Of a stretch of DNA of 64,000 nucleotides, positions 44,613 through 60,182 are shown one piece after another (within the stretch, counting starts at the first letter, position 1; every line of letters starts with the position of its first letter). Origin of the DNA: an uncultured Bacteroides sp. Lineage in GTDB: Bacteria; Bacteroidota; Bacteroidia; Bacteroidales; SM23-62. The notes below the pieces were generated by a model. It ran no database searches, had not been told where the DNA came from, and saw only the letters and a list, made by a program, of their open reading frames with translations. The position numbers and the translations under genes were made by a program. The stretch lies in NCBI GenBank assembly GCA_964627835.1, contig CAZVLG010000174.1:1455-65454 (forward strand), read 5' to 3'.

Positions 44613-44622
44613 AAACCTGGAA

Positions 44623-45090
44623 ATGGAATGGTATCTTATTTTGATCATCGTGCTTGGAGCATTTTTTTTCATGGAATTCATGGCATGGTTCACCCATAAG
44701 TATGTTATGCACGGATTCCTCTGGGTCCTGCATCAGGATCACCATGTCCCCACCGGTAAACGATGGCAGAAAAACGATCTCTTTGCGTTGATGTTTGCAA
44801 TACCCAGCATGCTTCTCTGTGTCCTTGGCTCGATAGATAAGATTGACTACCGGTTCTGGATAGGCATCGGCATTGCCCTTTACGGGATTACCTATTTTTT
44901 ACTGCACGACACGCTTGTCCACGAGCGCACTCCGCTGCTGCGGAATGTAAACAATGCCTATTTCCGCGCCATTGTAAGTGCACATAATGACCACCACATC
45001 GGGAAAAAGAATTATGGTTTCGTGCTGATGTTCCCCTGGAAATATTTTAAAAAGGAAAATCAGAAAAACCTGAAACGTAAATCCTGGTAA
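44623..45090 (+). CDS. crtZ: beta-carotene 3-hydroxylase
   Basis: 155 aa. Four histidine boxes: HKYVMH, HQDHH, HDTLVH, HNDHH. Fatty-acid-hydroxylase superfamily, with CrtZ length. Confidence 0.88.
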   Translation: MEWYLILIIVLGAFFFMEFMAWFTHKYVMHGFLWVLHQDHHVPTGKRWQKNDLFALMFAIPSMLLCVLGSIDKIDYRFWIGIGIALYGITYFLLHDTLVHERTPLLRNVNNAYFRAIVSAHNDHHIGKKNYGFVLMFPWKYFKKENQKNLKRKSW

Positions 45091-45092
45091 GC

Positions 45093-45770
45093 TTGTCAAC
45101 CTATTTTATCATACTGGCTGCTGCAATTGTTTTTCCGGTTCTCCTGAGCTTCGATAAAAAAGTCGCCTTTTATCGCAGGTGGAAATACCTGTTCCCTGCC
45201 ATGTTCATCACGGCCTTCGTATTCATAGCGTGGGATGTTTTTTTTACCCGGAGAGGGGTCTGGGGATTTTCCCCCGAGCACCTGTCAGGACTGCATATTT
45301 TGTCAATTCCGGTGGAAGAATGGCTGTTCTTCCTGGTAATACCGTATGCATCCGTTTTTACCTTTGATGTTGTCAAAGCCTACTTCAAGGGGATGAAAGG
45401 ACAAAGGGCAGCCAGCCTGGTCAACCTTGTGCTTCTGGGACTGGCTTTTCTTGCGATGATACTTTTTCCCGGCCGTGCCTATACCTTTGCCACATTCTGC
45501 CTTATGGCCGTTCTGCTTGTCCTGCACCAGTGGATGCTGAAAAGTACCTGGATGTCCCGGTTCTATTTTTCCTACCTCCTGATACTCATTCCTTTTCTCC
45601 TTGTCAATGGAGTACTAACAGGAACTGCGGTGCCGGGCGAAGTCGTCTGGTATAACCCCGGCGAAATTATGGGCTTGCGAATAGCTACCATCCCCCTGGA
45701 AGATGTCTTTTATGGTTTCGACCTGATCCTGCTGAACATCACCCTGTATGAATTATTCCAACGATCTTAA
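45093..45770 (+). CDS. fused heterodimer-type lycopene cyclase (CrtYc-CrtYd)
   Basis: 225 aa, TTG start 3 nt after the crtZ stop. Polytopic membrane protein with two halves, each carrying the conserved P-x-E-E/D motif (IPVEEWLFF and IPLEDVFYGF). Confidence 0.8.
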   Translation: MSTYFIILAAAIVFPVLLSFDKKVAFYRRWKYLFPAMFITAFVFIAWDVFFTRRGVWGFSPEHLSGLHILSIPVEEWLFFLVIPYASVFTFDVVKAYFKGMKGQRAASLVNLVLLGLAFLAMILFPGRAYTFATFCLMAVLLVLHQWMLKSTWMSRFYFSYLLILIPFLLVNGVLTGTAVPGEVVWYNPGEIMGLRIATIPLEDVFYGFDLILLNITLYELFQRS

Positions 45771-46066: not shown

Positions 46067-47644
46067 TTAGTTGATCTTTTTTTGATGAGCCGAGGAATCC
46101 AACAGGTAGATATCATTGCCTTCAACCAGAAGGCCCTGGATCGGGAATCCATGTGTGTAGAACGGGACATCAATGGCAAAGGCATGGTTGTCGTACAGGG
46201 AAGTTACCTGTTTTACATTGGTATGCCCGACAAAGACATATTGTGCACTGAAATAATCCAGCACTTTTTTAAACTCCTCTTCAGGCAGATGATCGTATTC
46301 ATGGTTGTCCTCGAGAAAACCGCGATACCAGAACGGGCCATTTGGTCCCAGCAGAACACTGCGGCTGACTTCTCCGTTGTACATGCGTTCGGGATGGTTG
46401 AGAAAGTAGCGGACATTATCGTTGATCTCCCCGATGTCCAGGCCGGAGGCCATCAGGTCGGGGGATAATCCAGCATGAACGAACAAATGACCGTTGATCT
46501 TTACGATGGTATTCCTTGTGCGAAGCCACTGGCCAAGCACGGTCCGTTTGCCGAAAAGCCAGGGATAATCGATGTTGAGCCTTGAGGTCATAAGCAGGTA
46601 CTTGTCCGACACATAATCCGTCTTGCCCGACAGCACCATTATTTCATGATTGCCGAGGACCAGGTGCACGGCACCTCCTTCCTGCAGGGCCTCCTGTTCC
46701 AGCTGGTAGATCAGCCAGAGAGCTTCTGTAACCTTGTCGCCACGGTCAAAGATATCCCCCACGAAAACAAGATAATCCCGGCCCCATGTCCAATGCAAGG
46801 AATCGTCGATAACACCGTTGCTCTGCAGGAAATTAACAAGGCTGTCGTATCCGCCATGAATATCCCCCATGACCATGATCCGCCCGACATTATCCAAACG
46901 GTCGGGCGGGACCTCCCTGCGGGAATCTATACGATACTCCAGGGAATCCCCTGAAAAACCCTTGATCAGGTAAGGATCTGAATCTGCCTTGAAACGGGCA
47001 CTGGACCTGCGGGTGATCTGGGATTTTGATTCGTGGACAAGATACATGACTTTGACTTTCCGTCTCCCCTTCCATTTAACATAGGGGCCGTCCAGGAGAT
47101 CCGGCAGGTTCTTTTCAGCCTGGGTCCGGAGGTATTTGGCAACCTCTGTACGGCTGTGCCTGACGGCCATATCATACGCGGTGAACCATTTGTTATTCTT
47201 ATGGAAAAGATCGGCCCCCCGCCTGACAAGGTGTTTGGTGATCTTCAGATTTCCGTTGCTTGCCGCATAAAACAGGGCCGTATTCCCCTCGGGATCCATG
47301 GCTTCCATGTCCGCACCTGCCTGGATCAATGCTGTTACCTTTTTTCCATCCTCCATGCCGGAAGCATACATCAGGGGGGTAATTCCATCAACTGCCTGGT
47401 TTGCGTCCGCTCCCCTGCCGATAAGCCAGGCCGTTGTTGCGGCATCACCATGCTGAATTGAGTGGAGCAGCATCGTTGTACCGGATTCCCCGTAACGGCC
47501 GTTCACATCATGGTTCAGGAGGTACTGTTCGATGCTTTCAACATCTCCCTTTTCAACCCAGGAAAGCACAGGATCGCCGGATTGGGAGAACCCCGGTTGC
47601 ATCCACAGGGACAGGATGGAAAATATAAATAACAATCCTTTCAT
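46067..47644 (-). CDS. secreted ankyrin-repeat protein fused to a PPP/Shelph-type metallophosphatase
   Basis: 525 aa. Signal peptide MKGLLFIFSILSLWMQPGFSQ. About 4 ankyrin repeats (TMLLHSIQHGDAATTAWLIGRGADAN, TPLMYASGMEDGKKVTALIQAGADME, NTALFYAASNGNLKITKHLVRRGADL). Phosphatase motifs GDIHGGYD, GDIFDRGD, GNHE, VHAG. Confidence 0.85.
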   Translation of the reverse strand: MKGLLFIFSILSLWMQPGFSQSGDPVLSWVEKGDVESIEQYLLNHDVNGRYGESGTTMLLHSIQHGDAATTAWLIGRGADANQAVDGITPLMYASGMEDGKKVTALIQAGADMEAMDPEGNTALFYAASNGNLKITKHLVRRGADLFHKNNKWFTAYDMAVRHSRTEVAKYLRTQAEKNLPDLLDGPYVKWKGRRKVKVMYLVHESKSQITRRSSARFKADSDPYLIKGFSGDSLEYRIDSRREVPPDRLDNVGRIMVMGDIHGGYDSLVNFLQSNGVIDDSLHWTWGRDYLVFVGDIFDRGDKVTEALWLIYQLEQEALQEGGAVHLVLGNHEIMVLSGKTDYVSDKYLLMTSRLNIDYPWLFGKRTVLGQWLRTRNTIVKINGHLFVHAGLSPDLMASGLDIGEINDNVRYFLNHPERMYNGEVSRSVLLGPNGPFWYRGFLEDNHEYDHLPEEEFKKVLDYFSAQYVFVGHTNVKQVTSLYDNHAFAIDVPFYTHGFPIQGLLVEGNDIYLLDSSAHQKKIN

Positions 47645-47683: not shown

Positions 47684-50101
47684 CTACTCGTATTTCAGGG
47701 ATTCGGCCGGGTTTGTATTGGCGGCCCGGACCGTTTGCAGGGCGACAGCCAGGAGGGCAAACACGATAACCAGCAATCCGGTTGCCACGAATACAGGCCA
47801 GTGAATGCCGGCCTTATAGGGATAATTTTCGAGCCATCGCCGGACAATCCACCATGTAATGGGTGTCGCAATCAGGATTGACAGAAGGATCAGGTCAAAA
47901 AATTCACGAGAAAGCAGGAAAAGGATCCGGTTCACACTGGCCCCGGTTACTTTCCGAATACCGATCTCCTTGGTGCGCTGAAGTGTGGTATAGGAAGAAA
48001 GTCCGAAAAGTCCCAAAGCAGCGATGATAATGGCAACCAGGGAAAAAACGCCGACGGCAGCAAAAATCTGTTTCTCGATCCGGTACTGCCGGTCATAAAA
48101 AACATCGAGGAAGAAATAGTCAAAGGGATTACCGGGGAAAAACTCATCGAAGGTGGCTTTCAGCTCACCCATGGCCTGTTCACGCCTTTCGGGACTCAGC
48201 TTCAATGCAAAAAAGGAGCGGTTGGCAGGCAGGTACCGGTACAACAGGGGAATGGGTTCCTGTTTCAGAGACATCTGGTGGTAATTTCCGATCACCCCCA
48301 CAATATGTCGCTCCTCCCCATCAATATCAACTTTTTGCCCGATGGCTGCATCGGGGGAATCATAACCGAGGAAATCAACGGTTTTCTGATTGATGATGAC
48401 GGCAAGATCCTCGGTGCCGTATTCCGGTGAAAAATTGCGTCCGGCAAGAAGTTCAATATCAAAGGCGGGAATATAGTCCTCGTCCATTCCGATCTTGTAC
48501 ATCACGCCCCGGCCCTGTTCTTCATCGGTTCGGCGGATGCCGCTGGCCCAGAAGATCTCGTCACCGGGCACGTTGGTCGAAGCCGTCAGGTGATCTATCC
48601 CCGCAATGGAATTGATTTCATTCTTGAAGGTCCTGAATTTTTCATCGAAGGTAGTATCAATGCCGACCCCGGGTCCCCTGAGAACAAGGGTCTGCTCTAT
48701 CTCGACGCCAAGGTCCTGGTTGCGCATATACCTTAACTGTGAATAGATAAGGAAGGTTCCGGCGATAAAGGCCACCGAAGCCGTAAACTGGAAAACGACC
48801 AGAATTTTCCGGAGCAGGTACCCGTGCCCGGAACCACTGAATTTTCCTTTAAGTACCTCAACGGGCCTGAAGGAAGAAAGAATAAAGGCGGGGTAAAGGC
48901 CTGAAAGAATGGCACCGGTCAGGAATAAGGCACTCAGTCCCGCCCAGAAAAACGGTTCTGCAAAAAGGGACATACTCAGGTTTCTTCCGGTAAGCCGGTT
49001 AAAATACGGAAGCACCAGGGCCACGATCAGGATGGATATGCCGGCTGCCAGCAGGTTCATCAGAAGGGCCTCGGTTAGGAATTGCCGCACCAATTGCCGG
49101 CGATGGGCTCCGACCACCTTTCGTATCCCTACTTCCCGGGCCCTTTCCAGGGCACGGCTGCTGCTCATGTTGATGTAATTTACCCAGGCGATGATCAGGA
49201 CGGCCAGCGCGATCAGGGATAACATAAAGACCGCATCCGCATCCCCGTTTTCATCTGGCTCGGATTCCTGAAGAAGGTCCGAATGAAGATGGATATCCGT
49301 CAGGGGCTGTAAAATGAATTCCTGCCGGCTGTTGTATTTTTCCCAATCCTCCTTTCGCTCTTCTGCAAGCCACCCGGCAAACTTATTCTGGAACTCAAGT
49401 GGGTCCGCACCTTCCTCCAGCTGGACGTAGGTATTGAAATCATACCAACCCCAGGCTGTACGGCTCTGGTTATCTGATTCCTGATGAAGGGTTTCTGCGG
49501 AAACCAGAACCGAGAATTTTATATGAGAATTATCGGGGACATCCCTGATCACCCCTCTTATCTCGCAAGTAATATCGCCCCAGAAGGTTATTTCCTTTCC
49601 GATGGGATCTTCATCACCGAAGTATTTCTTTGCGGTTGATTCGGTCATGACTGCGGTATAGGGTTGCCTAAGGGCACTGGTGTCTCCGAGGATCAGTTCC
49701 CAGTCAAACATCCTGATAAAGGATGGCGTGACTACCTGCATTCTCCTTTCGCGGAATGAAATATTTTCACCGGTAGTAATGATGCCATCGAAGGGAAAGG
49801 CCCAGGAATATTCAAGCACCTCGGGGAAATTGTCCCTCATCGCCGGTCCCACAGCAGGAACGGCTGCGGCACAGGCAAACATCAATTCACCGTTCCGGTA
49901 TCCGTCGTAGCGAACCCGGTAAATTTGCCCGCTGTTCCGATGGAACCGGTCGAAGCTGTTCTCGTAGTAGACGTACTGCAGGAGAAGAAGGCAGGCAGCA
50001 ATGCCCGTGGACAATCCAAGCAGATTGAGGATCGAGTAAACTTTGTTTTTAGCGATGTACCTGAATGCCGAAAGCAGGTAATTGAAAAGGATCTGGAACA
50101 T
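47684..50101 (-). CDS. ABC transporter permease with two FtsX domains (MacB-like, ~800-aa Bacteroidota type)
   Basis: 805 aa. Two four-helix FtsX-type bundles, each preceded by a large extracytoplasmic domain. Repeated REVGIRKVVGA / KEIGIRKVTGA amphipathic-helix signatures. Confidence 0.85.
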   Translation of the reverse strand: MFQILFNYLLSAFRYIAKNKVYSILNLLGLSTGIAACLLLLQYVYYENSFDRFHRNSGQIYRVRYDGYRNGELMFACAAAVPAVGPAMRDNFPEVLEYSWAFPFDGIITTGENISFRERRMQVVTPSFIRMFDWELILGDTSALRQPYTAVMTESTAKKYFGDEDPIGKEITFWGDITCEIRGVIRDVPDNSHIKFSVLVSAETLHQESDNQSRTAWGWYDFNTYVQLEEGADPLEFQNKFAGWLAEERKEDWEKYNSRQEFILQPLTDIHLHSDLLQESEPDENGDADAVFMLSLIALAVLIIAWVNYINMSSSRALERAREVGIRKVVGAHRRQLVRQFLTEALLMNLLAAGISILIVALVLPYFNRLTGRNLSMSLFAEPFFWAGLSALFLTGAILSGLYPAFILSSFRPVEVLKGKFSGSGHGYLLRKILVVFQFTASVAFIAGTFLIYSQLRYMRNQDLGVEIEQTLVLRGPGVGIDTTFDEKFRTFKNEINSIAGIDHLTASTNVPGDEIFWASGIRRTDEEQGRGVMYKIGMDEDYIPAFDIELLAGRNFSPEYGTEDLAVIINQKTVDFLGYDSPDAAIGQKVDIDGEERHIVGVIGNYHQMSLKQEPIPLLYRYLPANRSFFALKLSPERREQAMGELKATFDEFFPGNPFDYFFLDVFYDRQYRIEKQIFAAVGVFSLVAIIIAALGLFGLSSYTTLQRTKEIGIRKVTGASVNRILFLLSREFFDLILLSILIATPITWWIVRRWLENYPYKAGIHWPVFVATGLLVIVFALLAVALQTVRAANTNPAESLKYE

Positions 50102-50123
50102 GCTGATACTCTAAAAAGTGGTA

Positions 50124-50585
50124 TCAAAAACTGATTACCTTTTTCCCGGATTTAATGAAATCCGTCAGGTAGGTGCCCGTATATCTCACCTCGATGCCCA
50201 GCTCCTCCAGCTTCGGGCTTATTCCGTACTGGTCCGCACATCCCTTACAGGCAAGCAGTTCAACCCCTGCCTCCTTCATTTGCTTCAGGGATTCCTGGAT
50301 TTTTTCATCCTCGGTGCTGAGTTTGGCAGAAGGCCCCCAGACCAGGAGCGTTACCTGATCCCACCAGCCGTTTTTCTGTGCGTTGAGAGCGTACATGAAC
50401 ACCATTTTATGGGCCACGTCCGGATCTCCACTGGTCCAGACGATCAGCAGATGTTCAGAAGAAGTTTCTTTTTTCATTTGAATGGCCGACTCATGATTAT
50501 CATCGGACGTTTCGAGGGCAGATAAAGTTACAGAATTCAGGCCAAAGAAAAACACGGCCAGAAGACAGGCGATGCAATGTTTCAT
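50124..50585 (-). CDS. DsrE/DsrF-like family protein with signal peptide
   Basis: 153 aa. N-terminal MKHCIACLLAVFFFGLNSVTLSA. Body LLIVWTSGDPDVAHKMVFMYALNA...VTLLVWGPSAKL...ELLACKGCADQYG resembles DsrE-family (DrsE_2-like) proteins and includes a CxxC. Confidence 0.65.
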   Translation of the reverse strand: MKHCIACLLAVFFFGLNSVTLSALETSDDNHESAIQMKKETSSEHLLIVWTSGDPDVAHKMVFMYALNAQKNGWWDQVTLLVWGPSAKLSTEDEKIQESLKQMKEAGVELLACKGCADQYGISPKLEELGIEVRYTGTYLTDFIKSGKKVISF

Positions 50586-50664
50586 AAGGAAAAATTTAGG
50601 TTTTCATGAAAGTTAAGGATTTAAAGCAAGCCGGTCAATTTTCGGCCCGGATACAGATCGGGAT

Positions 50665-50786
50665 GGGTACAGGTGGAGGAGGTCCTAAAAATACCGATCA
50701 GGATGCAAACCAGGGAGGGTTCAGGTGGAGGAGGTCCTAAAAATACCGATCAGGATGCAAACCAGGGAGGGTACAGGTGGAGGAGG
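50665..50786. repeat. 52-bp direct tandem repeat, about 2.3 copies
   Basis: The units 50673..50724 and 50725..50776 (GTGGAGGAGGTCCTAAAAATACCGATCAGGATGCAAACCAGGGAGGGT[T/A]CAG) differ at one base. Partial copies flank them: GGGTACAG at 50665..50672 and GTGGAGGAGG at 50777..50786. The repeat ends 3 nt from the stop of the barrel gene. Confidence 0.95.
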
Positions 50787-50789
50787 GTT

Positions 50790-51962
50790 TTAGAAATTCC
50801 ATTTCAGGCGAAGGAAGACCATGCTGATCTCCTGCCTGAAAACGCTCCCGTTCAGGGGATTCGTGGATTCGGCATTGAAGTATTGAAGGAAAAATCCCAG
50901 GTCAACGTTGTTGATTACGTTATAGCTCAGGCTCGGGCCGATAAAAAATCCTTTCAACTCCGGGAAATACATGCCCGCAAGGCTGGCTGTGAAAAGGGGA
51001 GTGACCGGGTAGGAGCCGGAAACAAATATCGTATGATCGGTGAATGCGAGTTGTTTGACCGTCAGGGGACCGGAATAATAATCCAGGAATCCGAAGGCCG
51101 AGCTGAAAGGATTGCTGGAATAGAGGTACTCTCCCTGCAACATCAATGAATTCGGGAACACATAGTCGATTCCTGCAGAAAACATGAACATGCCTGAGGT
51201 ATCGCGGGGGTTCTTTACAGGATGGAAATAGCTGGCCTCCCCCCGGAAACCCGCCCCGCCAATATTCCCGGACCATCCAAGTCCCCCGACAAAATCATCC
51301 TCCTGCAGCAGGCAGGCCAGTATCTGGATGTCATAGCTTAACACATTGAAATAATACCTGGCCGCTGCCGTCAGGGTATTTGAGCTGTCGATTTTGGCAG
51401 CAAGCTCGATGGAAGAGGTAAAATTCGGGTAGAACTGTAATCTGAGGGCATCTGATCCGGGGCGTTCTTCATAATCGAAATCGAAATAGGAATAGGCATT
51501 GAAAATATCGTTGACGTTCCAGACGAATGTTTGTCCCCAGTTAATCCGCTGCCTCCCTGCCGTGGCAACAAAGGCACCCGTGGAATATTGAAGCCATACC
51601 CGGTCGAAAGCAGAATTTAACACATAGGATTTCCCGCTGAGGAGGTTGAAGGAAAGATCGACCCATCCGATATCCTGGCCAAGGGCCTCGACATAGCCGG
51701 GGATCATTTGAAGTGTTTCCCCGTACATAAGGCGGTTACGAAGCTGGATCGAACCGGTAAAATGCTCTCCCCCGTACCAGAAGAAATTCAGACGGTTATG
51801 GAACAGGTTATCCATGATCCAGTCTTCATCTGGTTCCTCAAACATGACGGATTGCATATTGCTGAGGTATCCCTGGAACTCGAACGGAGAATCCTCATTC
51901 TGTGCCAGCAGGCCTCCGGCCAGGAAGAACGTGAGAAAGACATATACGGAAATCCTCCACAT
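50790..51962 (-). CDS. predicted outer-membrane beta-barrel protein of the exporter operon
   Basis: 390 aa. Signal peptide ending LLAQ. Alternating hydrophobic/aromatic beta-strand pattern throughout. C-terminal ...FLRLKWNF with a terminal Phe, typical of OMPs. GRQRINWGQ motif. Confidence 0.65.
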   Translation of the reverse strand: MWRISVYVFLTFFLAGGLLAQNEDSPFEFQGYLSNMQSVMFEEPDEDWIMDNLFHNRLNFFWYGGEHFTGSIQLRNRLMYGETLQMIPGYVEALGQDIGWVDLSFNLLSGKSYVLNSAFDRVWLQYSTGAFVATAGRQRINWGQTFVWNVNDIFNAYSYFDFDYEERPGSDALRLQFYPNFTSSIELAAKIDSSNTLTAAARYYFNVLSYDIQILACLLQEDDFVGGLGWSGNIGGAGFRGEASYFHPVKNPRDTSGMFMFSAGIDYVFPNSLMLQGEYLYSSNPFSSAFGFLDYYSGPLTVKQLAFTDHTIFVSGSYPVTPLFTASLAGMYFPELKGFFIGPSLSYNVINNVDLGFFLQYFNAESTNPLNGSVFRQEISMVFLRLKWNF

Positions 51963-51967
51963 GTGGC

Positions 51968-52651
51968 TTATTTTACCTCGTCTTTCAGCACCTTGCCGTC
52001 CTCCAGGGAGATGACCCTCCTGGCCTTTTTCATCACCCTGGCGTCGTGGGTGGCAAAAATAAAGGTGATGTGCTCTTCCCGGTTCAGTTTTTCCATGATA
52101 TCCAGGAGGTTTTCGGTAGCTTTTGAATCAAGGTTTGCCGTGGGTTCATCGGCCAGGACAAATTTTGGCTTGGACGCCAGGGCCCTGGCGACGGCAACCC
52201 TTTGTTGTTGTCCGCCGGACAATTTTGCAGGACGGCTGTTCAGTCGGTCAGCAAGCCCCACAGCTTCCAGCAACTCCCTGGTGCGGGCATCCCGTTCGGT
52301 CCTGGACCTTCCCTGGAGATGCATGATAAATTCAATGTTTTCCTTTGCAGTCAGGACGGGGATCAGGTTATAGGCCTGGAAAACAAACCCGATATTGTAC
52401 AGCCTGAAATTGATGCGTTCGGATGATTTAAGGGTACTGATATTGATGCCACCGATATTGACCTCCCCGCTGGTCGGATTATCAAGTCCCCCAAGCATGT
52501 TCAGGAGCGTGGTCTTTCCGCAACCGGAAGGGCCTGCAATGGCAGCAAACTCGCCTTCTTCAAAAGAAAGGTCAATACCCTGCACTGCATGCACCTCGTG
52601 CTCTGAATCGTTGTAGATCTTATGCAGGTTTTTGATTTCAATTACTTTCAT
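51968..52651 (-). CDS. ABC transporter ATP-binding protein (LolD/MacB type)
   Basis: 227 aa. Walker A GPSGCGKTT, Q-loop, signature LSGGQQQRVAVARAL, Walker B FVLADEPT, H-loop ATHD. Confidence 0.95.
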   Translation of the reverse strand: MKVIEIKNLHKIYNDSEHEVHAVQGIDLSFEEGEFAAIAGPSGCGKTTLLNMLGGLDNPTSGEVNIGGINISTLKSSERINFRLYNIGFVFQAYNLIPVLTAKENIEFIMHLQGRSRTERDARTRELLEAVGLADRLNSRPAKLSGGQQQRVAVARALASKPKFVLADEPTANLDSKATENLLDIMEKLNREEHITFIFATHDARVMKKARRVISLEDGKVLKDEVK

Positions 52652-52680
52652 GATCTTGGACTTATTTACGTTATGGAATT

Positions 52681-54111
52681 TTACATATCGACCCGTAGCG
52701 CTTCGGCCGGGTTAAGTTTAATTGCTTTCCGCGCGGGATAGATCGATGCGAGTATCCCGGTAAGGATCACCAGGAAGAGGATTTCGAAAAACGAATCCAG
52801 TCCAATGGCCGGGTACACCTTCGCAGAGAAACCGATTGCTTCCAGTCCCTCTTTATAAAGTGCGGAAAGATCAACACCCGTGTTGCCGGTCCACCACACC
52901 AGCAGATAACAGAGCACCGTTCCGGCCATGGCGCCCGTAAGACCCAGGAAAATGGTTTCCAGCATGATCATGCTGAAAACCCTGCGCCTGTTCATACCGA
53001 TGGCCATCAGCATCCCGAGTTCCTTGACCCTTTCAAGCACGGCCATCAGCATGGTGTTGACGATCCCAAAGCCAAGGGCCAGGAGAATGATCACCAGGAA
53101 GATGAACAGATAATAGTTCATGGCTTCTGAGAGCATGGCAGCTTCCGGCATGATGCTATCCCAGGTCTGGACATCCATATCCGGCAGCATATCCCTGACC
53201 TGCTGTGCTACCTCTTTATCGTCGTTCACCGAATTAAGCAGGATGGCAATCTGGTTCACCTGGCCGGGATCCAGTGCAGCAACAGGCGAGATATCGGTGC
53301 TGCGGACGAACAGGTTCATTCCGTCAAAACCTGTGTTTCCGGTTTTATAAACGCCAACCACACGGAAGGCATCGTATGCAATGTTGCCGTCAAGTGCCTG
53401 GAAACTCAAAACGATCTTCCTCTTGAGGCGGTACTTCAGGGCTGCGTCCTTCACCCAGTAGGATATTCTGCCTGCCTCTTTTTCCCCAAATAAAGCGATA
53501 AGGGCATGATCAAATTCTGTTTCGGTACGGAAAGATTGGCCCGAGAGAGAATCCAGCACAGGCAGGATATTCCGGAATTTCTTTCGTTCGGCAAGGTAGG
53601 AAAGGTCTTCAGGAAGCAGTTCATAATAGGTGAGTTTTAGTGTTTTGGCCAGCTTTTCCCCGATCACGATGGGCTTCCTGCCATCGCCATTGAAGAAGGA
53701 TCCACCGTTCCGGACAATGGATCCGGCTATGCCCGTGACCTGGCGTTCACGGTCGATGTCAATGCCGTTGATCATAACCCCGGAAGCATTTCCCGAGGTA
53801 CTTGCCATGCCGAGTAACTTGACGCGGGGACTTACTGCTTTCACCTGCGGGATCTTTTCGATTTCCGCTACGGTCTCCTGGGCATTGTCAATGGTATATT
53901 TCAATTCATTGTTTTCAAGATATTTCGGGTGGTGAATCTGAATATGGGAGGATTCATTGCCGATGGCCGTCTTTATCCTCGAATCCATCATTCCGTAAAA
54001 GAAAGCCACCATATAAACGCCTCCGAATATTCCCAGGGTAAAGGCCACAATGACCACCATTGAGCGTGTTTTATTGCGCCATACGTTCTTCCATGATATT
54101 GACCAGATCAT
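52681..54111 (-). CDS. ABC transporter permease, FtsX/MacB-type with large periplasmic domain
   Basis: 476 aa. TM1, then a ~270-aa extracytoplasmic domain, then three C-terminal helices with the KELGMLMAIGM signature. Ends in PAEALRVDM. Confidence 0.85.
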   Translation of the reverse strand: MIWSISWKNVWRNKTRSMVVIVAFTLGIFGGVYMVAFFYGMMDSRIKTAIGNESSHIQIHHPKYLENNELKYTIDNAQETVAEIEKIPQVKAVSPRVKLLGMASTSGNASGVMINGIDIDRERQVTGIAGSIVRNGGSFFNGDGRKPIVIGEKLAKTLKLTYYELLPEDLSYLAERKKFRNILPVLDSLSGQSFRTETEFDHALIALFGEKEAGRISYWVKDAALKYRLKRKIVLSFQALDGNIAYDAFRVVGVYKTGNTGFDGMNLFVRSTDISPVAALDPGQVNQIAILLNSVNDDKEVAQQVRDMLPDMDVQTWDSIMPEAAMLSEAMNYYLFIFLVIILLALGFGIVNTMLMAVLERVKELGMLMAIGMNRRRVFSMIMLETIFLGLTGAMAGTVLCYLLVWWTGNTGVDLSALYKEGLEAIGFSAKVYPAIGLDSFFEILFLVILTGILASIYPARKAIKLNPAEALRVDM

Positions 54112-54135
54112 CTTGATAATTTTTAAAGTTTAATT

Positions 54136-55359
54136 TCAGGCACGCAGAGCCTTGATCTCCTTGAGCCTTAATACAGAATTAACGGGATAGATTATAGCCA
54201 GGATGAAGATCAGCAGTACCACGGACGATTGCCCGATAAAATAGCTAAGATCGAATTCCGCCGGCATAATGGGTTCAAAGCCATAGATCTCGAAGAGTTC
54301 GGCATATTCCCCGGTAAACCGGATGGGATTATTGACAAAATAGCCGATAATGGGCAAGCTGCCAATCACACCCGAGGCTACTCCCACAACACCCATCAAA
54401 AGCATTTCGATGGTTAAAATAATTCCAAGTCTCCGCTTCTGCATGCCAATGGCCACCATGACCCCGAACTCCTTTCTTCGTTCGGTAGTCATCATGATCA
54501 GGGTTCCAAGCACTCCGAATCCAACGATCAGATAAAGCATGCCAAGCATGATGTACCCCCCGGTCTGGTCGCTCTGGATCTGCTGTACGAGTTCCGGGTT
54601 CATTTCCTTCCAGTCCAGGATCTCGTAAAGCTCCTCATCAAGCAAATCCCCCAGGGCTTTTTTCGTTTTATGGAGCTGGCCGGAGTCATCTACATTAATG
54701 ACCAGGGAGCTAAGCATGTTCCGGGCCCCGTAAAATTCCTGGGCATAGGGAAGGGTCATGAAAACAATGCGTCGATCCAGCTCGGGATTCGGCATTTTCA
54801 CGATCCCGATGACCGGGTATATTCCTGCAGCACTGGCCCCGTGGTATCCTGTGCTCAGCATGGTAAGGGTGTCATTTAGCGAGAGGTTAAGGAACTCTGC
54901 CAGCCTGCTGGAAACCAGCACCCCGTCTGGGGATCCGTCGAAATAAACACCTTCCACCAGCTTCCGGTCCGGGTGAGTCAGCTCAAGTTCTTTTTCAGGA
55001 TCGATTCCTACCACCAGGATTCCCTTGGTCTGTTCTCCCGTTGATGCCAGTGCGAAGGATTCAAGCCTGGGGATGACGGCTTTTACGTTCTCGGTGGACT
55101 CGATCTTTGAGACTATTTCAGGAGCATACTCGAAAGTATTGTCGAGGGTCTGGTCTTCCCAGTAACCGTTCCGGTGAATCTGCAGGGATCCGGTATAGGC
55201 CTCCACGATCCCATCAGCCATATAACTGTAACTTCCGACCTGCATGGATCGCATGACCAGAGAAAGAAGAAGGGCAAAGAAAACCGATGCAATGGTGATC
55301 AGGGTCCTGCGTTTATTTCTCCAGATATTCCTCCAGGCCAGTTTCAGATAGTCTTTCAT
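54136..55359 (-). CDS. ABC transporter permease, FtsX/LolE-type
   Basis: 407 aa with the same topology: TM1, periplasmic domain, three helices. KEFGVMVAIGM signature. Confidence 0.85.
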   Translation of the reverse strand: MKDYLKLAWRNIWRNKRRTLITIASVFFALLLSLVMRSMQVGSYSYMADGIVEAYTGSLQIHRNGYWEDQTLDNTFEYAPEIVSKIESTENVKAVIPRLESFALASTGEQTKGILVVGIDPEKELELTHPDRKLVEGVYFDGSPDGVLVSSRLAEFLNLSLNDTLTMLSTGYHGASAAGIYPVIGIVKMPNPELDRRIVFMTLPYAQEFYGARNMLSSLVINVDDSGQLHKTKKALGDLLDEELYEILDWKEMNPELVQQIQSDQTGGYIMLGMLYLIVGFGVLGTLIMMTTERRKEFGVMVAIGMQKRRLGIILTIEMLLMGVVGVASGVIGSLPIIGYFVNNPIRFTGEYAELFEIYGFEPIMPAEFDLSYFIGQSSVVLLIFILAIIYPVNSVLRLKEIKALRA

Positions 55360-55418
55360 CTTGGAATGAGTTTTAATTATTCATGATTCTAATTCGGGGC
55401 TTCGGCCGCATGGATTTA

Positions 55419-56183
55419 TTACCGGACTTTTTTCATGTTCTGCTGGGAAAAGAATCCGTCCGGAATGGGTTTATTGAACAGGATATCATCCATCACAACC
55501 ACCGTTTTGTGGCCTTCTTCTTCTTCCGGTATCAGCTCGAATTTGGATGGGATCAATCTTCCGTCCATGGTTTTAATATCATAGGCCAGTTCTGTCTTGA
55601 TCAGGTAATCATCTTCATCGTAATATTCGCTTTTCATCTGCAGGTACTCTTTTTTCGATATCCATTTCAGGATCCGGCCCCAGACAACGGCGGCTTCTTC
55701 ATGAGGGATGAGCTGGATTTTATAACAGTCCCATCCATCAATCTCTTCCTCGCCGATGATCTCATGGGTATAATCAACCACGATGGAAGATTCCTTTAAT
55801 AAATCGTCATTCGTGAAATCCGAACCCATCCATCCCTGGGACATCATGGAAGGGGGCAGCTTGATGAGGCGGTTGATGGTGGGATTCCAGTTCCACATTT
55901 CATTCTGCCGTTTCAGGAATGTCTGGCCTTTCTCACGGGGCGGGGCCGTTATGAGCGCCAGGGTATAGTCCCTGCCTTTTGTCCAGTTCCTAAATGTTAT
56001 GATGCGTTCCCAGGTTGGCCGGACAATGGTCATGGTCATGGTACTCTGGCTGGTCTCTTCTCCCTGCATTTTTTCGTCCGCTTTCTTAATGATTTCGCGT
56101 GCATCCTGGGCATTTGCCGTTAATCCGGCAGCCAGCAGGCTGAGGACAATGATGTGACTGATTGTATTCATTTGGATCTGCAT
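55419..56183 (-). CDS. LolA-fold periplasmic protein (outer membrane lipoprotein-sorting protein family)
   Basis: Signal peptide. Pattern TMTIVRPTWERIITFRNWTKGRDYTLALITAPPREKGQTFLK...IDGWDCYKIQLIP resembles LolA-like (PF17131-type) proteins. The ATG at 56183 shares a base with the tetR stop (TAATG); the track start at 56189 is a TTG. Confidence 0.62.
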   Translation of the reverse strand: MQIQMNTISHIIVLSLLAAGLTANAQDAREIIKKADEKMQGEETSQSTMTMTIVRPTWERIITFRNWTKGRDYTLALITAPPREKGQTFLKRQNEMWNWNPTINRLIKLPPSMMSQGWMGSDFTNDDLLKESSIVVDYTHEIIGEEEIDGWDCYKIQLIPHEEAAVVWGRILKWISKKEYLQMKSEYYDEDDYLIKTELAYDIKTMDGRLIPSKFELIPEEEEGHKTVVVMDDILFNKPIPDGFFSQQNMKKVR

Positions 56184-56764
56184 TAGCAATACATTTTTAA
56201 GAGTTTGTTCTTTACTTTTTCAAGAGGGAAATTTTCGGGATTGACCATAAACTGAAACCCGATCCCGTCAAGCAGGGCGCCGAAAAATATCGCATCCGTA
56301 TTTGGATCTTCCGACCCGGTTGAAGCAAAATAGGCGGAAAGCATCTTCAGGTAGGTGTTCACCATGACCAGGAGCCTTTTCTCAACCAGCTTGAGCACCC
56401 TGGGCTGGAAGAACAGGTTGAAATACAATCTCCAGTACTGGGATTCTGTCTTCAGCGCCCGGAACATACCTTCCAGAAAGAACCTCATTTCCTCCTTGGT
56501 AAGGACCCCGTCCCTGTTTGGATCAATGAATTTTGTCAGGCTATCGATCCCGTTATAGATAATGGTCTTTATCAGATCTTCCTTGCTGTCGAAATAATTA
56601 TAAAGCAATCCCTTCGAAATGCCTGCGCGTTCAGCAATTTTACTGATGGATGTTGAATAGAAACCCTCCGTGGAAAACAACTCCAGGGCTGTGTCCATGA
56701 TCTCCTTTTTGCGGGATTCACGGATCTCTCCAAATTGTTGTTCTGTTCTTGGCGACATAATCAA
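56183..56764 (-). CDS. TetR/AcrR family transcriptional regulator
   Basis: 193 aa. N-terminal HTH FYSTSISKIAERAGISKGLLYNYFDSKEDL. Confidence 0.9.
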   Translation of the reverse strand: MIMSPRTEQQFGEIRESRKKEIMDTALELFSTEGFYSTSISKIAERAGISKGLLYNYFDSKEDLIKTIIYNGIDSLTKFIDPNRDGVLTKEEMRFFLEGMFRALKTESQYWRLYFNLFFQPRVLKLVEKRLLVMVNTYLKMLSAYFASTGSEDPNTDAIFFGALLDGIGFQFMVNPENFPLEKVKNKLLKMYC

Positions 56765-56771
56765 CTATTTT

Positions 56772-56791
56772 TCGATTAAACGTTCAGTCAA
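56772..56791. promoter_or_regulatory. operator-like site 1, TCGATTAAACGTTCAGTCAA
   Basis: 17 of 20 identical to the reverse complement of site 2. Lies 8 nt upstream of the tetR start codon. Confidence 0.45.
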
Positions 56792-56827
56792 TATATAAAT
56801 AATTTTTAAACTGCCCGGAGACAGTTT

Positions 56828-56847
56828 TTGACTGAACGTTTGGTCAA
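56828..56847. promoter_or_regulatory. operator-like palindrome, site 2, TTGACTGAACGTTTGGTCAA
   Basis: TTGAC-N10-GTCAA dyad with 8 of 10 half-site positions symmetric. Overlaps the candidate -7 box of the operon. Confidence 0.5.
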
Positions 56848-56852
56848 AGATA
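56845..56852 (-). promoter_or_regulatory. candidate -7 promoter box TATCTTTG for the tetR-led operon
   Basis: Minus-strand TATCTTTG, 81 nt upstream of the tetR start at 56764. Overlaps operator-like site 2 by 3 nt. Confidence 0.4.
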
Positions 56853-57010: not shown

Positions 57011-57496
57011 ATGACTGTAGAGGAATATAATCATTGCGTGGAGGCACATTCAGACGGATTGTACCGCTTTATTCTGAAGAACATCAGGGACCCGGAAAAA
57101 GCGGAAGATATTGTGCAGGACAGTTATGAAAAATTATGGAGGAAGGTGAAGGAAGTACGGTATGAAAAATCAAAATCATACCTTTTTTCCACGGCTTACC
57201 ATACCATGGTCGATGTTATACGAAAAGACAGAAGGATGGAGGATTTTGCCAGGGGGAAGAAAGAAAGCATTGCTCATGACCGGCAGTACAGCGATCTGCA
57301 GGAGATACTGCACGCAGCGCTTGAACGCTTGCCGCAGACCCAGCGGACGGTTATCCTGTTGAGGGATTATGAGGGATATACCTATGCTGAAATAGGTGAA
57401 ATAACCGGCTTGAGTGAATCACAGGTCAAGGTCTATATCTACCGGGGCAGGATCTTTCTGAAGCAATACATCGGGAGCCTGCAGGCAGTAATTTAA
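57011..57496 (+). CDS. ECF-type RNA polymerase sigma-70 factor
   Basis: 161 aa. Region 2 (AEDIVQDSYEKLW). Region 4 HTH (YTYAEIGEITGLSESQVKVYIYRGR). Confidence 0.9.
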   Translation: MTVEEYNHCVEAHSDGLYRFILKNIRDPEKAEDIVQDSYEKLWRKVKEVRYEKSKSYLFSTAYHTMVDVIRKDRRMEDFARGKKESIAHDRQYSDLQEILHAALERLPQTQRTVILLRDYEGYTYAEIGEITGLSESQVKVYIYRGRIFLKQYIGSLQAVI

Positions 57497-57502
57497 AAGG
57501 AA

Positions 57503-58651
57503 ATGAAGATCGGCAGACATAATTATGAATCATGGTTCCTGGATTACCTGGACGGCAAGCTGGATGCCGGGCAGGAAGAAACCCTGCTATCCTTCCTGGA
57601 TTTCAATCCGGATCTCAGGGAGGAGTTTGAGGGACTTGAAAGAATACGTCTTGAGGGGAAAAATTTGACATATGACCTCAAGGCAACGCTGCGAAAACCG
57701 CTTGCCCAGCCTGACCGACAGGACATGTTGGATCATTTTGAAGATTACTGCATCTCAAGCATCGAACAACAATTAAGTCCCCAGGAAGAAACAATGCTGC
57801 AGGGGATACTGGAAGATGAGCCCGCTAAACGCAATATTTACAGGCTCTACCGGTCCACCATTATAAAGGCCGAGGAAGGCATTCAATACCCCGGGAAATC
57901 CAGGCTGAAGAAAAGGTATATTGACATTCCGCGGGTAAGGCTGGCGGTATCTTCAATTGCTGCGGCGGTTCTGCTGGGACTTGCCATAACCTTGTTGTTC
58001 AGAAAACCGGCCGAACCAAACCTGATCACCCATGCACCCGACCCATCGTCCGTTTTGGAAGAACCAGAGTCCCTCGAGAAGGGCGTGACAGAAAAGACCC
58101 TGGAGAACCCTGTTATAGGGGAAGCCCATCCCGATATTATCGAGGATAAAGAAGGAATGGAAAGAACAGCCCGTGGGAAAGCAGAAACTGAGCCCGATCC
58201 GATTCCGCAAAAAGGGGATTTGAAAGATTTCGTCACAGGTGTTCAGGATGAAATACAAAGCCCTGTCCCGGGTCCGACTTTAACAGGGAGGGAAATCCTT
58301 ATCCTGGCCAGGCTTGAATCCATTGAAGCCGGACCGCTGGAAAATCCCGGCAGGATGAACAATCTCAGCCTGTCCCATCGACAGGGGTTTTCAGATTTCG
58401 ATGATTATCTCCCGCTGGATGAATATGTCATGGAGCGAATCAACAGGAGAAGAAGCACCAATGCAGGGGAAAGGAAAATATCATTCTGGAAACTGGCCGA
58501 TGCAGGGATCCAGGAGATCAATGAAGCAAGCCAGGAGGAATATTCCCTGGAAAGGGAAACGGATGATTACGGACATGTCCGCAGGCTTACTTTTGAAAGC
58601 CCGTTCTTCGGAATTTCCACTCCTACGAGAAATTCTGACCTGCCCCGGTAA
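57503..58651 (+). CDS. putative anti-sigma factor (single-pass membrane protein)
   Basis: 382 aa, starting 6 nt after the sigma gene. N-terminal ~90-aa cytoplasmic segment, one TM helix (LAVSSIAAAVLLGLAITLLF), then a Pro/Glu-rich extracytoplasmic part. The role is inferred from position only. Confidence 0.5.
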   Translation: MKIGRHNYESWFLDYLDGKLDAGQEETLLSFLDFNPDLREEFEGLERIRLEGKNLTYDLKATLRKPLAQPDRQDMLDHFEDYCISSIEQQLSPQEETMLQGILEDEPAKRNIYRLYRSTIIKAEEGIQYPGKSRLKKRYIDIPRVRLAVSSIAAAVLLGLAITLLFRKPAEPNLITHAPDPSSVLEEPESLEKGVTEKTLENPVIGEAHPDIIEDKEGMERTARGKAETEPDPIPQKGDLKDFVTGVQDEIQSPVPGPTLTGREILILARLESIEAGPLENPGRMNNLSLSHRQGFSDFDDYLPLDEYVMERINRRRSTNAGERKISFWKLADAGIQEINEASQEEYSLERETDDYGHVRRLTFESPFFGISTPTRNSDLPR

Positions 58652-58714
58652 CTTTTGACCCACCTTCGCCGTCTTATTTCAAAAACCAGAAATTGTTTTA
58701 CTAATACTATCAAC

Positions 58715-59653
58715 ATGAGAAAAGTTATAATACTGATACTGGGACTTTCCTTTGCCCTGATCCTGCAGGCACAGGAAGCAGAGGATACCACCCGGGTTGG
58801 AATCGGCAAGAAGAATATCGTAACGGTAACCGAAGACGATAAGGGGACCAATGTCAATGTCAAGGAAGATTTTGTAATCGTTGATGATATGGATGATACG
58901 ATCAAGGTAAAACTCGGCAATAAAGCCATCAGCATAGTCGAGGATGGGGACAGGACGCATGTGGAGATCATTGAAGAGAAGGATTTCTCCAGACATGGAT
59001 GGAAGAAAAAGCCGTATCGCTTCAAGGGTCATTGGGCCGGGTTTGAGTTGGGACTGAATAACTGGGTGGACAAAGGGGGCCATCTTGCCGGAACAGAATC
59101 CGAGCACCTTTTTCTAGATCTGAACACAGGCGAATCATGGGAGCATGATCTGAACATCATGCAATTTAACCTTCCCTTTGGAAAACCGCTGGGCCTGGTA
59201 ACCGGAATGGGATTTAAATGGAATAATTACTGGTTCAACGGGAACAACAGCATTATGAAGGACCCCGTAACAAGCGAAATTGTACCACGCTATCCGCCGG
59301 CCGGGGTCTCCTATGCCAAGACCAAACTGAATACATCTTACCTGACCGTGCCCCTGATCTTTGAGGTTCAATTTGGTCCCAAGAAAAAAGGTTTCATCGG
59401 CGTGGGGGTCATCGGGGACTTGAAACTCTGTTCAAATACAAAACTGAAGTATTACGATGGAGGTTCCAGGCAACGGGAAAAGACAAAAAGTGATTTCAAC
59501 ATCTCCCCGTTCAGGTACCACCTGACGGCAAGAGCCGGTTACAGTTTTGTGAAGATCTTCGCCAACTACAGCATGGTGCCGATGTTCAAGCATAATATGG
59601 GACCCGAACTGTACCCCGTAACCATTGGCCTTACCCTCATCAGCTTCAGATAG
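58715..59653 (+). CDS. outer-membrane beta-barrel (porin-family) protein
   Basis: Signal peptide MRKVIILILGLSFALILQAQ from the ATG at 58715. The C-terminal half has alternating beta-strand patterns and ends ...IGLTLISFR. Confidence 0.62.
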   Translation: MRKVIILILGLSFALILQAQEAEDTTRVGIGKKNIVTVTEDDKGTNVNVKEDFVIVDDMDDTIKVKLGNKAISIVEDGDRTHVEIIEEKDFSRHGWKKKPYRFKGHWAGFELGLNNWVDKGGHLAGTESEHLFLDLNTGESWEHDLNIMQFNLPFGKPLGLVTGMGFKWNNYWFNGNNSIMKDPVTSEIVPRYPPAGVSYAKTKLNTSYLTVPLIFEVQFGPKKKGFIGVGVIGDLKLCSNTKLKYYDGGSRQREKTKSDFNISPFRYHLTARAGYSFVKIFANYSMVPMFKHNMGPELYPVTIGLTLISFR

Positions 59654-59724
59654 GATTGCCCGGGAATACCGGCCAGAAGACAGTCATTCCCTGATCCCGC
59701 CGGCCGGATGTTCCCGGGAAAAGG

Positions 59725-59754
59725 AAAGGGACCCGCATCAGGGATCCCTTTTTT
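59725..59754 (+). terminator. rho-independent terminator downstream of the beta-barrel gene
   Basis: AAAGGGACCC-GCATCA-GGGATCCCTTT hairpin followed by a T-run (TTTTTT). It is preceded by a second imperfect long hairpin (arms 59659..59674 and 59702..59718). Confidence 0.6.
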
Positions 59755-59775
59755 CATATGGACCGATATCCAAAA

Positions 59776-60127: not shown

Positions 60128-60159
60128 GATCTTTCTGCACAGGGCTTCAATGGTTTTAC

Positions 60160-60167: not shown

Positions 60168-60182
60168 ACGGAAAATATCCAG

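Follow-up and report, generated by a model that had tools for sequence, protein, structure and literature searches.

ATP-binding cassette (ABC) transporters of type VII, such as LolCDE and MacB, spend ATP on extracting or expelling molecules at the periplasmic side and carry nothing across the inner membrane, and proteins of the LolA fold shield hydrophobic moieties. The described systems closest to the locus studied here join a periplasmic DUF1329 protein and an outer-membrane DUF1302 barrel to an engine of another sort. In the AmeABCD system of Castellaniella defragrans the pair is found with a pump of the resistance-nodulation-division (RND)/MMPL type, and deletion mutants tolerate monoterpenes less well and accumulate more Nile Red (PMC6394551). 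DUF1302 and DUF1329 genes also form cofitness clusters in Shewanella, Kangiella and Pseudomonas (bioRxiv 072470). We have analyzed a 64,000-nt stretch of DNA from an uncultured Bacteroides sp. (GTDB Bacteroidales; SM23-62; contig CAZVLG010000174.1, positions 1,455-65,454), called the window below, in which a tetR-led set of genes encodes a LolA-like carrier and a barrel related to these families together with the parts of a type VII ABC transporter. It is most aptly regarded as a counterpart, with an ABC engine, of the DUF1302/DUF1329 systems that are powered by RND/MMPL pumps, AmeABCD among them.

Within the Bacteroidota, the genes PG1178-PG1181 of Porphyromonas gingivalis form an operon that is transcribed as a unit, responds with strong induction to a limited supply of iron or haem and has been linked to nitric oxide (NO) stress (PMC10434189, PMC10470040, PMC11018363). 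The LolA3 protein of the same species (Protein Data Bank, PDB, entry 9TP6) has a hydrophobic groove, lacks both the arginine signature of LolA and the leucine signature of LolB, and binds LolB weakly (PMC13103446). A computational proposal for Borrelia BBJ23-BBJ29 combines a MacB/LolE-like type VII ABC transporter (BBJ26/27), a LolA-like protein (BBJ28) and an Omp85 barrel (PMC13078400). The latter is the nearest published idea that our literature searches brought up; they returned no description of an ABC transporter combined with a PF17131 protein and a DUF1302 barrel. An earlier interpretation made from the letters of the window (the sequence-only reading) knew of no functional characterization for this gene combination. 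As regards the form with an ABC engine, it appears indeed to be undescribed, but the principle of a carrier paired with a barrel is already known with RND/MMPL engines.

The conserved unit comprises six genes, those for TetR, the LolA-like protein, two FtsX-type permeases, an ATPase and the barrel, and not the eight that had been proposed (Table 1). To define it, one genome per species was scanned with the barrel, yielding at least 572 relatives; the best 80 of these loci, nearly all Bacteroidales or Bacteroidota metagenome-assembled genomes, were kept and are the basis of all locus counts given here. In the 61 loci with at least 4.7 kb of sequence upstream of the barrel, the LolA-like gene, two or more FtsX permeases and the ATPase are found co-directional and directly 5' of the barrel 57 times, with three permease open reading frames (ORFs) in six cases. 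Two loci (L061 and L055) contain the same genes with the barrel first, and in another (L037) the barrel is followed by the LolA-like gene at the end of the contig. Of the 59 loci having enough flank, 43 are headed by a tetR gene. The neighborhood conservation that had been suggested as a check is thus borne out. With this gene order kept in dozens of species whose barrels are 43-79% identical, the arrangement is far beyond chance. The barrel family itself is large and unnamed: there were 6742 matches at E ≤0.001 among the candidates scored, and clustering at 50% identity gave 3014 groups, of which 579 have E ≤1e-30.

The carrier is predicted to adopt a LolA-superfamily fold, in line with the sequence-only reading, yet it differs from LolA itself. 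Its best sequence matches in the PDB are 3BUU (2.9e-19), 9TP6 (6e-17), 4Z48 (8.6e-16) and 3BK5 (4.4e-9). An AlphaFold2 model (predicted local distance difference test, pLDDT, 83.3; predicted template modeling score, pTM, 0.76) gives Foldseek template modeling (TM) scores of 0.77-0.86 to the same four structures, with 0.83-0.86 to 4Z48, 3BUU and 9TP6 and 0.83/0.86 in the comparison with 4Z48, a "DUF1329 family protein". Scores to LolA, LolB and RseB are only 0.4-0.6. Bacteroidota homologs in the 9TP6 family, which was retrieved with a 9TP6 sequence reconstructed from an alignment, match both PF07044 (DUF1329) and PF17131. Together with the Pfam match to PF17131, the model places the protein in the DUF1329/PF17131 ("LolA3") branch of the fold and not in the LolA family. 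A signal peptide of the signal peptidase I (SPI) type ends in ...LTANA, before QDA, and no lipobox is present in 58 of 61 family members; the barrel likewise has an SPI signal peptide and no lipobox. The carrier is therefore predicted to be soluble in the periplasm, where it may shuttle freely or be docked on the barrel. An AlphaFold-Multimer complex of DUF1302 with DUF1329 has been reported with an interface pTM (ipTM) of 0.84 (PMC13499233).

Besides its signal peptide, the barrel protein has the C-terminal Phe already pointed out in the sequence-only reading and an invariant loop motif, GRQRINWG...W-N-ND-FN...F-DY-E-PGSD. Its AlphaFold2 model (pLDDT 79.7, pTM 0.73) is a closed beta-barrel with 19 DSSP strand segments, and Foldseek aligns it to the major outer-membrane protein (MOMP) of Campylobacter jejuni (7.9e-12), AlgE (2.6e-10) and OccD/OccK channels, with TM scores of 0.52-0.59. 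The best solved matches are 18-stranded channels. The modeled protein is porin-like, with about 18 strands to its barrel, and the call of an outer-membrane barrel withstood this examination. Models of DUF1302, described in 2026 as an 18-stranded barrel, have the same top Foldseek matches, an Occ channel and AlgE, at TM ~0.55 (PMC13499233).

In sequence, the connection to DUF1302 is remote. A direct search of the PDB with the barrel sequence found nothing. Of 38 family members, 11 match PF06980 (DUF1302) weakly (best E 1e-5); the scores inspected are below the 23.2-bit cut-off, and all matches fall on the region of the invariant motif. An hhalign comparison of the barrel family with a profile of four bona fide DUF1302 barrels, all encoded in MMPL-type loci, gave a probability of 86.6% and an E-value of 4.5e-6 over 311 columns; the barrel profile matched the Saccharicrinis DUF1302 barrel at 4.6e-7. 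Significance was reached only with the four-sequence profile, a comparison with a single DUF1302 sequence being negative (probability 3%), and BLASTP against the Bacteroides zoogleoformans barrel aligned just the GRQ..WG motif. These data support the view that the barrel is a remote DUF1302 homolog, while strict membership in the Pfam family is unsupported.

The bona fide DUF1302 barrels come from loci with a different engine. In B. zoogleoformans, Saccharicrinis fermentans, Porphyromonas macacae and a fourth genome, the genes follow the order MMPL, LolA3 and a DUF1302 protein of 405-420 residues, and on a P. gingivalis-like contig LolA3 is followed by a gene whose beginning is 63% identical to the P. 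macacae DUF1302 barrel. Because the barrel families align in hhalign and the window carrier matches B. zoogleoformans LolA3 (25% identity, E 1e-18), carrier and barrel are, by these homologies, a two-protein module common to the ABC-type operon of the window and the MMPL-type operon PG1178-PG1181. Among the MMPL-type loci recovered (L082-L086), a pair of MsbA-like ABC_membrane half-transporters often flanks the genes (L084, L085), and a TetR gene is present in L085. These loci match operons reported as induced by iron limitation in P. gingivalis and Prevotella intermedia.

By the same kind of evidence the ABC version is not confined to the Bacteroidota, and what looks like the same system exists in Betaproteobacteria. 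The loci of orthologs of 3BUU (NE2245 of Nitrosomonas europaea) were inspected in Nitrosomonas eutropha (L087, 654-9657) and Nitrosospira lacus (L088, 1-9544). Both have a PF17131 gene beside a DUF1302 barrel, two FtsX/MacB_PCD permeases of ~400 residues and an Acetyltransf_5 gene (OlsB/N-acyl amino acid synthase family); an ABC ATPase gene is adjacent in N. eutropha, and the N. lacus stretch inspected showed none. The window proteins match those of the Nitrosomonadaceae at 1e-64 (ATPase), 2e-31 (permease) and 1e-21 (carrier). The loci differ from the window in that the carrier gene is divergent from those of the ATPase and barrel, the barrel is larger (482-556 residues) and no TetR is found among the called genes. 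The N. eutropha locus is interrupted by an insertion sequence element.

The inner-membrane components point to a heteromeric type VII ABC transporter of LolCDE-like stoichiometry that is not a Lol ortholog. For both permeases the best NCBIfam match is TIGR02212 (lolCE), which the 407-residue protein reaches with 107.8 bits (E 5.8e-31) and the 476-residue protein, in two stretches, with 129.7 bits, against a cut-off of 362.45. The sequence-only reading had favored a Lol-like over a MacAB-TolC-like logic, and the PDB ranking of the permeases agrees: the best matches are LolF structures (9W35, 9W37), followed by LolE, with MacB weaker (3.2e-16, 8.6e-9 and 6.5e-7, respectively, for the 407-residue protein). 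The larger permease aligns with LolF at 3.9e-19 in two segments, residues 78-161 with 78-160 and 246-474 with 183-410. In pairwise alignments the 407-residue permease is about 6 residues shorter than LolF in the Hook region, and the 476-residue permease has an insertion of ~65 residues (~162-246) at the place of the LolA-binding Hook of LolC and LolF. The insertion is variable across the family, since ORFs of 410 or of 478 residues may stand at either permease position in related loci. The ATPase is nearest to LolD, DevA, the nucleotide-binding domain (NBD) of MacB and YbbA and falls below every cut-off (LolD, TIGR02211, 232.7 bits against 307.75; DevA, 224.7 against 295.8). The engine is thus Lol-like only in its architecture and in the ranking of its nearest relatives, since neither the LolC/E/F nor the LolD equivalog scores are attained.

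Pfam searches of the 12 larger ORFs between 37.5 and 63.6 kb and of the gene families recurring within 10 kb in the 80 loci revealed neither a HlyD/MacA-type adaptor, or membrane fusion protein (MFP), nor a TolC-family gene, as the sequence-only reading had maintained, and the outer-membrane component is a porin-like barrel in place of a TolC-type duct. The Lol-like logic of a carrier with a dedicated barrel and without MFP or TolC, deduced from this in the earlier interpretation, holds; it is not unprecedented, given the RND/MMPL-driven systems. No MMPL/RND gene occurs in the operon or among its conserved neighbors, and no BNR/Ycf48-like beta-propeller was found in the scanned window ORFs, the recurrent neighbor families or the Bacteroidota MMPL-type loci. 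Nor does the operon contain a LolB-like gene, the barrel taking the last position.

Upstream of tetR, the related loci share a 20-bp palindrome with the consensus TTGACyrAmCGTTCAGTCAA. The window has two copies, both within 90 nt of the tetR start codon, which is most likely the ATG at 56758. The palindrome is directly 5' of tetR in 41 of 45 tetR-bearing loci; when up to four mismatches were allowed, 1.26 Mb of related loci yielded 52 matches, every one immediately 5' of tetR, and none in loci without this gene. Because it is specific to tetR upstream regions, the palindrome is likely to be the TetR operator at an autoregulated promoter, in agreement with the tetR-led operon proposed earlier. 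The regulator itself reaches the cut-off of no NCBIfam equivalog. Scans for sigma-70 promoters and intrinsic terminators gave counts equal to the shuffled expectation, with all terminator-like matches intragenic, and are uninformative for a Bacteroidota genome.

Table 1. Coordinates of the operon, the putative operators and the adjoining genes in the window.
Feature	Position	Strand	Remarks
TetR-family regulator	56183-56764	-	193-aa ORF; Pfam TetR_N, E 4.6e-18
LolA-superfamily periplasmic protein (predicted), 256 aa	55419-56189	-	PF17131 LolA_like, E 1e-55, 188.7 bits vs cut-off 30
FtsX-type (type VII ABC) permease, 407 aa, LolF/LolE-like	54136-55359	-	Pfam FtsX
FtsX-type permease, 476 aa	52681-54111	-	Pfam FtsX + MacB_PCD
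ABC ATPase (LolD/DevA/MacB-NBD/YbbA-like)	51968-52651	-	ABC_tran, E 8.2e-36
Outer-membrane beta-barrel (modeled), 390 aa, remote DUF1302 relative	50790-51962	-	No Pfam match; C-terminus ...LKWNF
DsrE-like protein, 153 aa, signal peptide; neighbor, non-core	50124-50585	-	Pfam DsrE, E 6.4e-8
ADOP-type duplicated FtsX permease, 805 aa; neighbor, non-core	47684-50101	-	MacB_PCD x2, FtsX x2
Ankyrin-repeat + metallophosphoesterase (calcineurin-like) protein; ninth co-directional gene	46067-47644	-	Pfam
Distal palindrome copy TTGACCAAACGTTCAGTCAA, inferred TetR operator	56828-56847	.	Conserved 5' of tetR
Proximal palindrome copy TTGACTGAACGTTTAATCGA (minus strand), 13 nt before tetR ATG	56772-56791	.	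Conserved 5' of tetR
Extracytoplasmic function (ECF) sigma factor	57011-57496	+	Pfam
Single-pass anti-sigma-like protein	57503-58651	+	No Pfam match; transmembrane segment visible in translation
OMP_b-brl_2 outer-membrane protein	58655-59653	+	Pfam

All eight minus-strand ORFs listed in the sequence-only reading are present, with the coordinates, domains and spacings it gave, and the observation as such is confirmed; a ninth co-directional gene, for the ankyrin-repeat metallophosphoesterase, is missing from its list, and its end coordinate for the cluster, 56852, lies beyond the tetR ORF and takes in the promoter/operator region. As recalculated from the ORF coordinates, the tetR stop overlaps the start of the LolA-like gene in the sequence TAATG (-1 nt; LolA-like ATG at 56183), and the gaps that follow along the operon measure 59, 24, 29 and 5 nt. 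None of the gaps among the six core genes (-1 to 59 nt) has a terminator-like site. Larger or further gaps separate the barrel from dsrE (204 nt), dsrE from the 805-residue permease (22 nt) and the latter from the ankyrin-metallophosphoesterase gene (39 nt). The 204-nt gap is mostly filled by a 52-bp tandem repeat (50660-50786; 2.4 copies, 96% match), which occurs nowhere else in the window or in the 80 related loci, matches no Rfam family and gives no RNA-folding signal (z -0.45).

Beyond the barrel the gene content is no longer conserved. The DsrE-like gene adjoins the barrel only in L001, L002, L004 and L037, and stands farther off and on the opposite strand in four more loci. Full-length homologs of the 805-residue permease, which scores 277.6 bits with the ADOP model TIGR03434 (cut-off 622), are found 3' of the barrel only in L001 and L004; homologs of the ankyrin-phosphoesterase, 3' of the barrel in L001, L004 and L002, travel with these two genes. 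Since the three follow the barrel only in the closest relatives, the conserved system consists of six genes and the rest are lineage-specific neighbors; the DsrE-like protein and the large permease, put forward earlier as parts of the system, are accordingly rejected as core components.

A set of carotenoid genes is also present in the window, on the plus strand, opposite to the operon and beyond the ninth gene: crtI-like, 41718-43196; phytoene synthase, 43252-44088; lycopene cyclase, 45093-45770. It had prompted the suggestion of a pigment as cargo, which did not stand up: a lone crt gene is near the barrel in just two of the 80 loci (L007, L045), and L004, the closest full-length relative, is without crtI, crtB and cyclase. 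The set (41718-45770) includes two small ORFs of 175 and 155 residues without Pfam match; a homolog of the former is retained in L004 despite the missing crt genes.

On the other side of tetR, and divergent from it, is a trio of genes for an ECF sigma factor, an anti-sigma-like protein and an OMP_b-brl_2 protein (57011-59653). Among the 80 loci, 32, 31 and 17, respectively, have homologs of these genes 5' of tetR and in divergent orientation; under a strict distance of ≤1.2 kb, 22 of 43 loci qualify. It is a recurrent neighbor, possibly a co-regulator, and hints at a link between the transporter and envelope-stress signaling. Farther along the plus strand, an 896-residue ORF without Pfam match (60919-63609) is preceded by a short ThiF-family ORF (139 residues, 59708-60127) and a peptidase S51 gene (60150-60887).

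How might these parts work together? We envisage inducible outward transport of a hydrophobic small molecule from the inner membrane to or through the outer membrane, a scheme to which we give about an even chance. TetR would sit on the two 20-bp palindromes at its own promoter until released by a hydrophobic ligand. In the inner membrane, a type VII (mechanotransmission) ABC transporter made of two different LolF/LolE-like permeases and presumably two copies of the ATPase would extract the compound and pass it to the hydrophobic groove of the LolA-like protein, as type VII systems such as LolCDE and YbbAP-TesA extract hydrophobic molecules from the inner membrane (PMC12646458). The LolA-like protein would deliver the compound to the DUF1302-like barrel, or would sit docked on it, and the barrel would serve as the exit from the cell or as the site of insertion into the outer membrane. 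The analysis shows the composition of the operon, the folds and homologies of its products, the kept gene order, the operator motif, and the lack of MFP and TolC in the operon and its conserved surroundings; co-transcription, the contacts between the proteins, the outward direction and the hydrophobic small-molecule nature of the cargo are inferred.

Several points weigh against such a scheme. The tetR gene is missing in a quarter of the loci. A canonical LolC-type Hook is kept in neither permease in pairwise alignments, which leaves docking of the carrier conjectural, and the top structural matches of the barrel are solute channels, its conserved loop being rich in charged residues and not obviously a hydrophobic route. 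In P. gingivalis, it is a shortage of iron or haem and not a xenobiotic to which the homologous MMPL operon responds (PMC10434189, PMC10470040). Finally, Pseudomonas mutants in DUF1302/DUF1329 genes fail on fatty esters, which could mean uptake (10.1101/2020.07.04.188060).

The cargo could instead be an endogenous membrane lipid (such as an aminolipid, a methylated lipid or a lipid of the N-acyl amino acid type) that the ABC transporter would extract and the carrier and barrel would insert into the outer membrane, in the manner of Lpt with LPS or Lol with lipoproteins. Such a role would fit the Acetyltransf_5 gene that follows the PF17131 gene in N. eutropha and N. lacus, the PEMT/ICMT-type membrane methyltransferase encoded directly 3' of the barrel and on the same strand in 19 of the 80 loci (e.g. 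L005:9817-10563), and the S-adenosylmethionine (SAM)-dependent methyltransferases inside the MMPL-type loci L085 and L086; the methyltransferases are a possible clue to a methylated, lipid-like cargo. It would also accord with the proposal by Price et al. that DUF1302 and DUF1329 take part in "export of a cell wall component" (bioRxiv 072470). Yet no biosynthetic gene recurs in the majority of loci or belongs to the window operon, autoregulation by a ligand-type TetR is more typical of inducible efflux, and the system is not universal in the Bacteroidales, so that we regard this alternative as unlikely, if worth keeping in mind. A sorting function for proteins, in which the locus would be a second, specialized Lol pathway for a subset of lipoproteins (e.g. 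surface-exposed ones) with the barrel replacing LolB, could draw on the ranking of LolF and LolE as the best solved relatives of the permeases, on TIGR02212 as their best NCBIfam match, on the LolA-superfamily fold of the carrier and on the similar proposal for Borrelia BBJ23-BBJ29 (PMC13078400). Each Lol equivalog score is, however, far below its cut-off, the carrier is of the PF17131/DUF1329 class with low TM scores to LolA, and P. gingivalis LolA3 lacks the LolA and LolB signatures and binds LolB weakly (PMC13103446). No conserved lipoprotein gene belongs to the operon, and TetR control with a patchy distribution is unlike a housekeeping sorter. Altogether, a lipoprotein pathway of this kind seems to us quite improbable.

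Transport might also run in the opposite direction, with the barrel admitting a hydrophobic nutrient, the LolA-like protein ferrying it inward and the ABC transporter driving the last step at the inner membrane, be it release or insertion, by a logic akin to that of Mla or FadL. To our knowledge, none of the characterized type VII systems (LolCDE, MacB, FtsEX, YbbAP) is an importer, and FtsX permeases lack a path for a substrate through the membrane. Uptake could, nevertheless, account for the defects of P. putida mutants in DUF1302/DUF1329 (PP_0765/6) and BNR/RND genes on Tween 20 and butyl stearate (10.1101/2020.07.04.188060) and for the presence of DUF1329 genes in islands for the catabolism of aromatics, steroids and alkanes (bioRxiv 072470; PMC6394551). 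On the other hand, the AmeABCD data favor export (PMC6394551) and the recurrent neighbors in the 80 loci include no conserved catabolic genes; we judge an uptake role improbable, a little less so than the lipoprotein pathway. The least probable of all, and largely refuted by the neighborhood analysis, is the possibility that the eight genes form a real unit in which the DsrE-like protein and the 805-residue permease act on a crt pigment or a sulfur compound. These genes are co-directional, the large permease is not accompanied by its own ATPase gene, a DsrE-like gene is within a few kb of the barrel in eight of the 80 loci, and L007 and L045 have their lone crt genes. Against this, dsrE, the large permease and the ankyrin-phosphoesterase gene follow the barrel only in L001, L004 and partly in L002, a gap with an unrelated tandem repeat separates dsrE from the barrel, L004 lacks the crt genes, and those of the window are on the other strand beyond another gene. 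The earlier interpretation is, in sum, partly supported.

A broader proposal, which we put forward only tentatively and would at present rather doubt than believe, is that the window system is the Bacteroidota member of an unrecognized, cross-phylum class of ABC-powered conveyors, in which a LolCDE-like extractor would feed a DUF1329-type protein docked on a DUF1302-type barrel and the cargo would be an endogenous lipid or lipid-like molecule. If this is true, hydrophobic molecules could reach the outer membrane or the cell surface by a distinct route beside Lol, Lpt, Mla and the TolC-dependent pumps, and the long "dark" DUF1302 and DUF1329 families would gain a defined mechanism. Both DUF1302 and DUF1329/PF17131, families of outer-membrane and periplasmic proteins, respectively, are widespread; mutants show phenotypes in several bacteria, and regulation is strong in the pathogen P. 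gingivalis. There is no agreed mechanism for them, and we know of no solved DUF1302 structure. The use of one module with different engines, the Lol-like ABC engine being found with it in at least 572 species and also in ammonia oxidizers, argues for a general outer-membrane end-station for hydrophobic cargo. TetR, with its likely 20-bp operator, offers a handle on the inducing ligand and so probably on the cargo, and the dependence on ATP could be reconstituted. Were the cargo an endogenous lipid, the system would constitute a new route of envelope biogenesis; were it a xenobiotic, a TolC-independent efflux architecture with a bearing on tolerance in anaerobic sediments and perhaps also in Bacteroidales that live with a host.

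Set beside the known systems, the window locus has features of several. With the Borrelia BBJ23-BBJ29 proposal and Mla it shares an ABC transporter, a soluble carrier for hydrophobic ligands and an outer-membrane barrel complex, without MFP or TolC; the Borrelia barrel is of the Omp85 type, non-homologous, and comes with TPR chaperones. Mla has an MCE/MlaE-type ABC transporter, the MlaC fold and MlaA-OmpC/F, and its barrel, too, is not homologous to that of the window. MacAB-TolC and DevBCA-HgdD have the same FtsX/MacB_PCD permease architecture and ATPases (MacB-NBD and DevA) near that of the window, which differs from them in lacking, within the operon and among conserved neighbors, a HlyD-type adaptor and a TolC duct and in having two different permeases, not fused to the ATPase. 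The resemblance extends further with LolCDE and LolDF, which likewise are type VII ABC transporters with two FtsX permeases of four transmembrane segments and a separate ATPase, have a soluble partner of the LolA fold and use neither adaptor nor TolC. There, however, the carrier is of the LolA family and not PF17131, and the receiver is the lipoprotein LolB and not an integral barrel; in addition, the window system has a shortened Hook region in one permease and the insertion in the other, is probably TetR-regulated and is not universal.

It is the carrier and the barrel that tie the locus to the RND/MMPL-driven systems. PG1178-PG1181 of P. gingivalis belongs to the same phylum, is TetR-led and has a carrier of the PF17131/DUF1329 class and a homologous barrel of ~400-420 residues, whereas its engine, like that of related Bacteroidota loci, is of the MMPL type, often with two ABC_membrane half-transporters. 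The AmeABCD-like cassettes depart from the window in their proton-driven HAE3 RND/MMPL pump and BNR beta-propeller, where the window has an FtsX-type ABC transporter and no BNR protein, in their regulators, which are of the LuxR or AraC type instead of TetR, and in the larger size of their proteobacterial proteins (barrel ~540-600 residues, DUF1329 ~450 residues). Under these differences lies the same plan, a LolA-superfamily protein and a dedicated barrel of about 18 strands (DUF1302 there, a probable remote relative in the window), without MFP or TolC and with links to hydrophobic compounds.

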